A stretch of DNA of 50,028 nucleotides, the filler included, from Bipalium vagum (lineage: Eukaryota): NCBI GenBank assembly GCA_037834085.1. It is 2 parts of 2 records of this genome, joined end to end, with 100 filler letters (N's around TTAATTAATTAA, not from the genome) between each part and the next. Parts side by side here need not be neighbours in the genome. Positions count along the whole stretch, not along the records: positions 22,468 to 50,028 come from JBBMKC010000002.1; 1 more part is not named here. One strand, 5' to 3'. Shown one piece after another: positions 38,863 to 39,679 of the stretch. The translations under genes were made by a program, and so were the position numbers. Below the pieces are notes generated by a model that did no database searches, was not told the origin of the DNA, and was given only the letters and a program-made list of their open reading frames with translations. Every line of letters starts with the position of its first letter. Position 1 is the first letter of the stretch.

Positions 38863-38896
38863 CTCGTTAATCCATTCATGCGCGTCAGTAGTTAGC

Positions 38897-38956
<60 letters not shown>

Positions 38957-39679
38957 ACTCGAATTACTACGATTTAACATTCAGAGCACTGGGCAGAAAT
39001 CAGAGACAGTAAACGTCCGCAAGGACCATCTGTCTCCTCTGTTTTAATTAGACAGTCGGATTCCCCGAGTCCGTACCAGTTCCAGTTCGACCGTTTTGAT
39101 GGTCGATCAGGATACTAAGCCCGAAGGCAAAGCACACACCTGTAAATGTCCACAAGGTGGTCATATCACTAGTCCAGCGTCAGTGCGCTATACACGCACA
39201 TTTGCCGGCCACGGACGAAAACCGCACAAGCATCAATTAACAGGCCAACCGACCCGGTCACTGGAGCCAATCCTTTTCCCGAAGTTACGGATCTAATTTG
39301 CCGACTTCCCTTACCTACATTGTTCTATACCGCCAGAGGCTGTTCACCTTGGAGACCTGCTGCGGATATGGGTACGGTCTGGCATGAAAATCACACTCGC
39401 TCCCTCAGATTTTCAAGGGCCGACACAAGTGCACCGGACACCGCAAGAGACGCGGTGCTTTACGGAAACAACGTCCCTATCTCCGGGCGAACCGATTCCA
39501 GGGAGTCTGTTCCTTACAAAGAAAAGAGAACTCTTCCCGGGACTTCTGCCGACGTCTCTGAGTTCGTTTGCGTTGCCGCTCTGGACATCCCCCGAAAGAT
39601 GATGCCCGTCTCCAAAGCCAGGTTCGGGAATATTGACCCGATTCCCTTTCGATAGAAGGTGGACTAGATTCACTCGTAC
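38863..39679 (-). rRNA. 28S rRNA: 28S rRNA fragment from a different organism (rhabditid-nematode-like)
   Basis: The reverse complement covers the same 28S region as about 37410-38200 but has different variable domains. It has AAAACAGAGGAGACAGATGGTCCTTGCGGACG, GAATGTTAAATCGTAGTAATTCGAGTAAGCGCGG and GGATTGGCTCCAGTG, which I recognise as Caenorhabditis-type rather than flatworm or mollusc. The rRNA call is certain; the taxon is less so. Confidence 0.95.

Follow-up and report, generated by a model that had tools for sequence, protein, structure and literature searches.

A probable chimera of nematode and second-animal 28S rDNA in the genome assembly of the flatworm Bipalium vagum

Snail-eating land planarians are recorded paratenic hosts of Angiostrongylus cantonensis, with a prevalence of 14.1% in Platydemus manokwari from Okinawa (PMC9582568). 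Planarian carriage of snail-borne Angiostrongylus is already known, and the snail-nematode-planarian chain, which the first-pass annotation of the present locus had offered as a possibly unrecorded association, is on record in that same source. Prey and parasite rDNA is routine in genome skims of flatworms (PMC8815365; PMC12534020), and one nematode larva is described in a holotype section (PMC8815365). In the literature searched, which covered few subscription papers, no report was found in which nematode rDNA had been extracted from the assembly of a planarian. Chimeric rDNA contigs are known to arise from mixed templates.

We analysed a window of 50,028 nt (filler included) of the Bipalium vagum assembly GCA_037834085.1, composed of parts of two records. 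Its second part (22,468-50,028, JBBMKC010000002.1) contains a foreign 28S rDNA contig that can be compared with these systems. Like the Angiostrongylus-planarian route, it brings together a triclad, DNA of land snails and a nematode of presumed clade-V type, and rodent-linked sequencing runs share sequence with it; unlike that route, it consists of DNA alone, with no live larvae, route or nematode genus attached. As in the "alien DNA" of land flatworm skims, multicopy rDNA of prey or parasites assembles from whole-animal libraries and gastropod rDNA marks prey (PMC8815365; PMC12534020). In contrast to Table 5 of PMC8815365, whose 12 contigs are gastropod or earthworm and none nematode, the foreign contig here appears chimeric and is scaffolded into host sequence. 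Four nematode and 5'-half motifs gave 0 matches in the PMC8815365 supplements. The contig resembles mixed-template chimeras in that the parents switch inside an invariant core block and each side is sound rRNA, and differs from them in that only one parent is seen elsewhere. We suggest, with a probability of about 0.82, that it is an assembly chimera of a clade-V-type nematode (3' part) and a second animal (5' part), both probably carried by a planarian that feeds on snails.

The contig and its surroundings

The contig (38863-39679, minus strand, 817 nt) stands alone between two exact 100-N gaps (38763-38862 and 39680-39779), and its GC content is 51% versus 25-30% in the surrounding DNA. Along its full extent it matches the eukaryotic LSU rRNA model RF02543 of Rfam on the minus strand, at model positions 1568-2331 (625.8 bits, E 1.4e-169; gathering score 50 bits), and its core helices are intact, as in a eukaryotic LSU rRNA gene. 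A decayed pseudogene is ruled out as its identity by the same Rfam match and by the fold of its D8 segment. Compared with the plus-strand 28S copy at 37351-38050, the contig is 73% identical over 607 columns. The first-pass annotation had described a separate 28S on the opposite strand, distinct from the gastropod-like copy, and both the minus-strand model match and this low identity bear it out.

The neighbouring copy belongs to a gapped 18S-ITS1-5.8S-ITS2-28S scaffold of pulmonate land-snail type (33701-38762, plus strand), presumed to be prey. Both motifs tested (18S and 28S, 2/2) occur in contigs labelled Cochlicopa lubrica (PMC8815365, File S3), which confirms the land-snail type of this gastropod-like rDNA. 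Compared by eye with those contigs, the scaffold has one difference in the 18S passage compared and ~12/275 in the 28S D1 passage; on this comparison it is a land-snail-type pulmonate, but not C. lubrica itself. At 34900-35170 two copies of the 5.8S 3' end, separated by a 10-N gap, lead into ITS2 starts that differ, so two gastropod rDNA types, probably of two prey species, are merged in one scaffold. A neighbouring scaffold that is itself mixed lends support to an assembly chimera in the contig as well.

The host is marked by a predicted neuropeptide precursor at 47636-47959 (plus strand), with a four-Cys spacer and three KR-flanked YFRL/YFRM-amide peptides. Its ORF has the layout of Schmidtea NPP-22, in which AKYFRLG-type peptides occur three times, the third being C-terminal (PMC2953531, supplements), and on the strength of this putative orthologue the host is a triclad. 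Protein searches with the precursor yielded no usable match. The peptides themselves differ (ARYFRM, AQYFRL and AKYFRL amides), whereas those of Schmidtea NPP-22 in the same supplements are three identical copies. A terrestrial habit of the host is suggested by its prey alone.

Other elements lie outside the rDNA. The first part of the window carries a frameshifted non-LTR retroelement (1122-3471, plus strand; RVT_1 E 3e-16, followed by CCHC and restriction-like endonuclease motifs by eye), presumably of R2/NeSL type, and decayed mariner-like and gypsy-like remnants (4870-5850 and 8900-10300, plus strand, by eye). The second record starts with an alpha-tubulin gene fragment (22474-23829, minus strand, GC 42%) containing one short in-frame intron-like insert. 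The record separator (22368-22467) is a 12-nt six-frame stop linker flanked by 44 N on each side; the second record, which continues through many N gaps, has plain 100-N gaps inside it.

Two placements within one contig

We compared the contig with 17 loci and the snail copy. Loci L001-L006 are metagenome loci retrieved with a 22-nt motif from the 3' half, and L007-L017 are stray rDNA pieces from 11 bacterial genome records, retrieved with a general 28S core pattern that found these 11 loci in the genome-contig collection and 0 in the viral-contig collection. The latter set is animal 28S in bacterial records: five rhabditid-type pieces that are nearly identical, the Brugia-like L011, four pieces of another single type and one that is presumably vertebrate-like. 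We take L010, L012, L013 and L016 to be Caenorhabditis-type and L008, L009, L014 and L017 to be flatworm-like.

Diagnostic sites were defined as those where L001-L006 agree against the snail copy. The 3' part of the contig has 51 nematode-like, 0 gastropod-like and 4 other states at 55 such sites, while the 360 nt of the 5' part (39320-39679) have 12 nematode-like, 17 gastropod-like and 7 other states at 36 sites. In the 5' part the six loci, each tested likewise as a control, have 30-35 nematode states apiece. The best break falls at 39322/39294 (max chi-square 38, 0/5000 permutations equally strong). The final non-nematode state is at 39322 and exact nematode matches start at 39321, running for 83 nt with L002 and for 63-65 nt with L001, L005 and L006. 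The change of state and the exact-match runs make the near-invariant 58-nt core block at 39264-39321 (minus strand) the likeliest site of a donor switch. Diagnostic sites, trees and AU tests agree that the two halves place differently, as the rDNA of a single organism would not.

The 3' half (38863-39263) was tested directly over 38960-39294, in a tree of 13 of the 19 rows (the other six are too short). Nine rows join it in a group (100/100) that leaves out L003, the Brugia-like L011 and the snail copy, and this subclade of 10 rows lies within a 12-row nematode clade (100/100). Holding it outside nematodes is rejected (AU, P-value = 4e-5). A named anchor is given by Brugia malayi depletion probes (PMC11144916, Table 1), two of which overlap and agree by eye with 38995-39084 at 52/55 and 55/57 positions; in domain III the sequence of L011 is almost that of the Brugia probes. 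On this placement the 3' half is nematode. The rows that group with it are unlabelled. We take the group to be clade V (Rhabditina including Strongylida), which would make the first donor a rhabditine or strongylid. Among assembled loci, unlabelled environmental contigs come nearest, with 85-87% identity in the 3' half. Identity is 79% to L010, L013 and L016 and 71% to L012, the four rows of the group that we take to be Caenorhabditis-type.

Four motifs had been listed in the first-pass annotation as common to this fragment and Caenorhabditis. All are present, but every one is located 3' of 39263, and the resemblance to Caenorhabditis is loose (~79% between the 3' part and the presumed Caenorhabditis-type rows). 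Identity to a laboratory nematode, which the annotation had named as a danger to its reading, was not found among the presumed Caenorhabditis-type rows, at 71-79%. The claim of a "third organism" thus holds for the 3' part, which is nematode, and fails for the fragment as a whole, in which diagnostic sites and trees separate two organisms.

The D8/ES27L expansion segment of the nematode (39078-39264, minus strand) is predicted to fold as a long hairpin (-70.1 kcal/mol, z -3.06, 0/200 shuffles as good). Its tip (39205-39175, minus strand) has a GU/AU-rich extension, versus a short UUCG-type loop in most environmental loci, and is a possible genus-level marker.

The 5' half (39322-39679, minus strand, GC ~54%) was placed over 39322-39655 in a tree of all 19 rows. 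It falls outside the 12-row nematode clade at 100/100 on a short branch (0.083), and it lacks the domain III states in which Brugia and every row of that clade agree. Of the phylogenetic placement among nematode LSU sequences that had been called for, the 3' half thus went inside nematodes and the 5' half outside the nematodes sampled. Constraining the 5' half to the 10 clade-V-type rows is rejected (AU, P-value = 0.0018). A sister position to the whole 12-row clade (AU, P-value = 0.30) and a grouping with L008, L009, L014 and L017 (AU, P-value = 0.21) are not rejected. Descent of the 5' half from the snail is disfavoured (83% identity to the snail copy; AU, P-value = 0.06). Brugia malayi probes match the 5' half by eye at 33/47, 47/52, 30/43 and 40/50. 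The 47/52 match belongs to the one nematode-like block of this half (52 nt in common with nematodes; 10 of 11 nematode states at 39507-39467), and on account of this block the second donor may be a basal nematode. Its motif had no match in the genome-contig collection, the viral-contig collection or the paper texts searched. The second donor is most likely a fourth animal besides host, snail and nematode, without a match in these collections. A BLAST search or tree of the whole fragment would mislead by producing a phantom long-branch nematode.

Matches in public sequencing runs

We next compared 80 words of the contig with 24 rows of public sequencing runs. Part of the contig is present in 20 of the 24, and 15 hold half of it (0.50-0.51 of the words); the top share in any run is 0.51. 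If only the 3' part up to 39262-39320 were present, the predicted share would be 0.47-0.54, so the shares of 0.50-0.51 are those expected from one half of the contig. Base-level comparison covers 4 of the 24 runs over 38962-39262 (301 of the 817 nt); for all runs but X15, which half is present is judged from the share.

Run X15, a metatranscriptome from an unrelated study (share 0.50), covers all 28 bins of 38962-39262 with 54 contigs, 41 of them at ≥99% identity. Contig depth is very high and no alternative letter reaches a 10% share over this interval. Exact matches of 150 nt and 60 nt lie inside D8, and no single listed piece spans 38962-39262. True relatives differ by 1-9% in the core and by 26-47% in D8, and an identical D8 in X15 therefore points to the same or a very close nematode in that study. 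The nematode of the 3' half, or a very close one, is already in public runs of unrelated studies. About half of the contig's words are absent from X15.

Run X14 (coded organism A, represented by 12 rows from four named studies) yields low-depth pieces only and no intact high-depth copy. In its longest piece differences are spread evenly between core and D8 (10/91 versus 17/173, P-value = 0.83), and 8 of the 10 core changes fall on columns invariant in ten loci, as would be expected if the piece were a genomic copy in decay whose parent had almost the D8 of the contig. Two rodent-metagenome rows of one study have a share of 0.51, equal to the best runs. One rodent metagenome with this share, X9, gave 0 records over 38962-39262, and X16 covers 9 of 28 bins, none in D8; these negatives, like that of X14, come from a comparison whose filter drops contigs. 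The shares of X16-X20 (0.41-0.44) and X21-X24 (0.00-0.03) were not used as evidence.

Origin of the contig

A whole-animal library with rDNA of the host, snails, the nematode and one more animal would supply the templates. Two low-abundance multicopy rDNAs would have in common the near-invariant block 39321-39264, where an assembler path, or a template switch in the library, could have crossed between donors. The scaffolder would then have placed the chimeric contig beside the snail rDNA with 100-N gaps, probably by likeness. With lesser weight, the planarian might have ingested the nematode as larvae when it ate a gastropod; arrival via the snail is what we infer from the prey rDNA in the record. 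A natural inter-phylum rDNA recombinant has no support and is far less likely than an assembly join.

The chimera competes with two readings that would give the 5' half another owner. All 817 nt could be the genuine 28S of one unusual nematode with an ancestral-state domain III and a clade-V-like D8. The continuous Rfam match with intact helices, the block of 47/52 to Brugia, the 10/11 nematode states and the tolerated position as sister to all nematode rows agree with such an animal. Its 3' half, however, is nested with 10 rows that exclude L003 and L011, precisely where the 5' half is rejected, and no run exceeds 0.51 of the words even though X15 matches D8 exactly at very high depth, which leaves this reading highly improbable. 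Slightly less improbable, though still unlikely, is that the 5' half or the whole fragment is host rDNA of a divergent type. Two paralogous rDNA clusters, 89% identical in 28S, exist in land planarians (PMC10991399), and no sequence in the supplements of that paper matches the fragment. The library must be rich in host rDNA, and grouping of the 5' half with the flatworm-like rows was tolerated. Against this, five Schmidtea 28S probes (PMC6884822, supplement 1) match by eye at 26/40, 36/40 and 25/40 in the 5' half and at 27/40 and 21/40 in the 3' half, overall no better than the 25/40 of one such probe with the snail copy. The GC content and short branch of the 5' half speak against host rDNA too, and for the 3' half the nematode matches exclude it. 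Placement within Platyhelminthes, against which the earlier reading had been staked, is accordingly not what probes with only 21-36/40 indicate.

The other question is which nematode contributed the 3' half of the chimera. An equal share in a rodent-labelled study, together with a much-sequenced organism, points to a rodent-linked strongylid, which we consider somewhat probable. Rodent-linked runs and snail prey together make Angiostrongylus the simplest candidate, and a metastrongyloid lungworm of this kind leads the field, if tentatively. A little behind it, the nematode of the chimera might be a free-living or slug-associated rhabditid (a soil or surface contaminant, or a commensal like Phasmarhabditis) or the product of laboratory cross-contamination; no food chain would then be involved. 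Consistent with this, the closest assembled loci are the environmental contigs at 85-87%, nematode rDNA is frequent in unrelated assemblies (6 of the 11 bacterial-record loci fall in the nematode clade), and a heavily sequenced organism, with 12 of 24 rows from four named studies, is a likely source of index hopping. Yet the rodent-labelled share is easier to reconcile with a vertebrate parasite than with a soil bacterivore, the same record contains snail rDNA, and the 3' half is far from the Caenorhabditis-type rows (79%).

The fullest version of the proposed origin, in which the planarian acquired Angiostrongylus from snail prey and is an unlisted paratenic host, and in which the 5' half first reveals a fourth animal (parasitic or commensal, and without a close relative in the collections searched), seems to us unlikely. 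If it were true, mining of flatworm assemblies would double as lungworm surveillance. Were the nematode rat lungworm, a zoonotic route that is already known would gain a further host or locality from this specimen, which parasitologists could use but which involves no new mechanism. Above all, this flatworm record is a warning: the rDNA scaffolded into it comes from at least three foreign animals.
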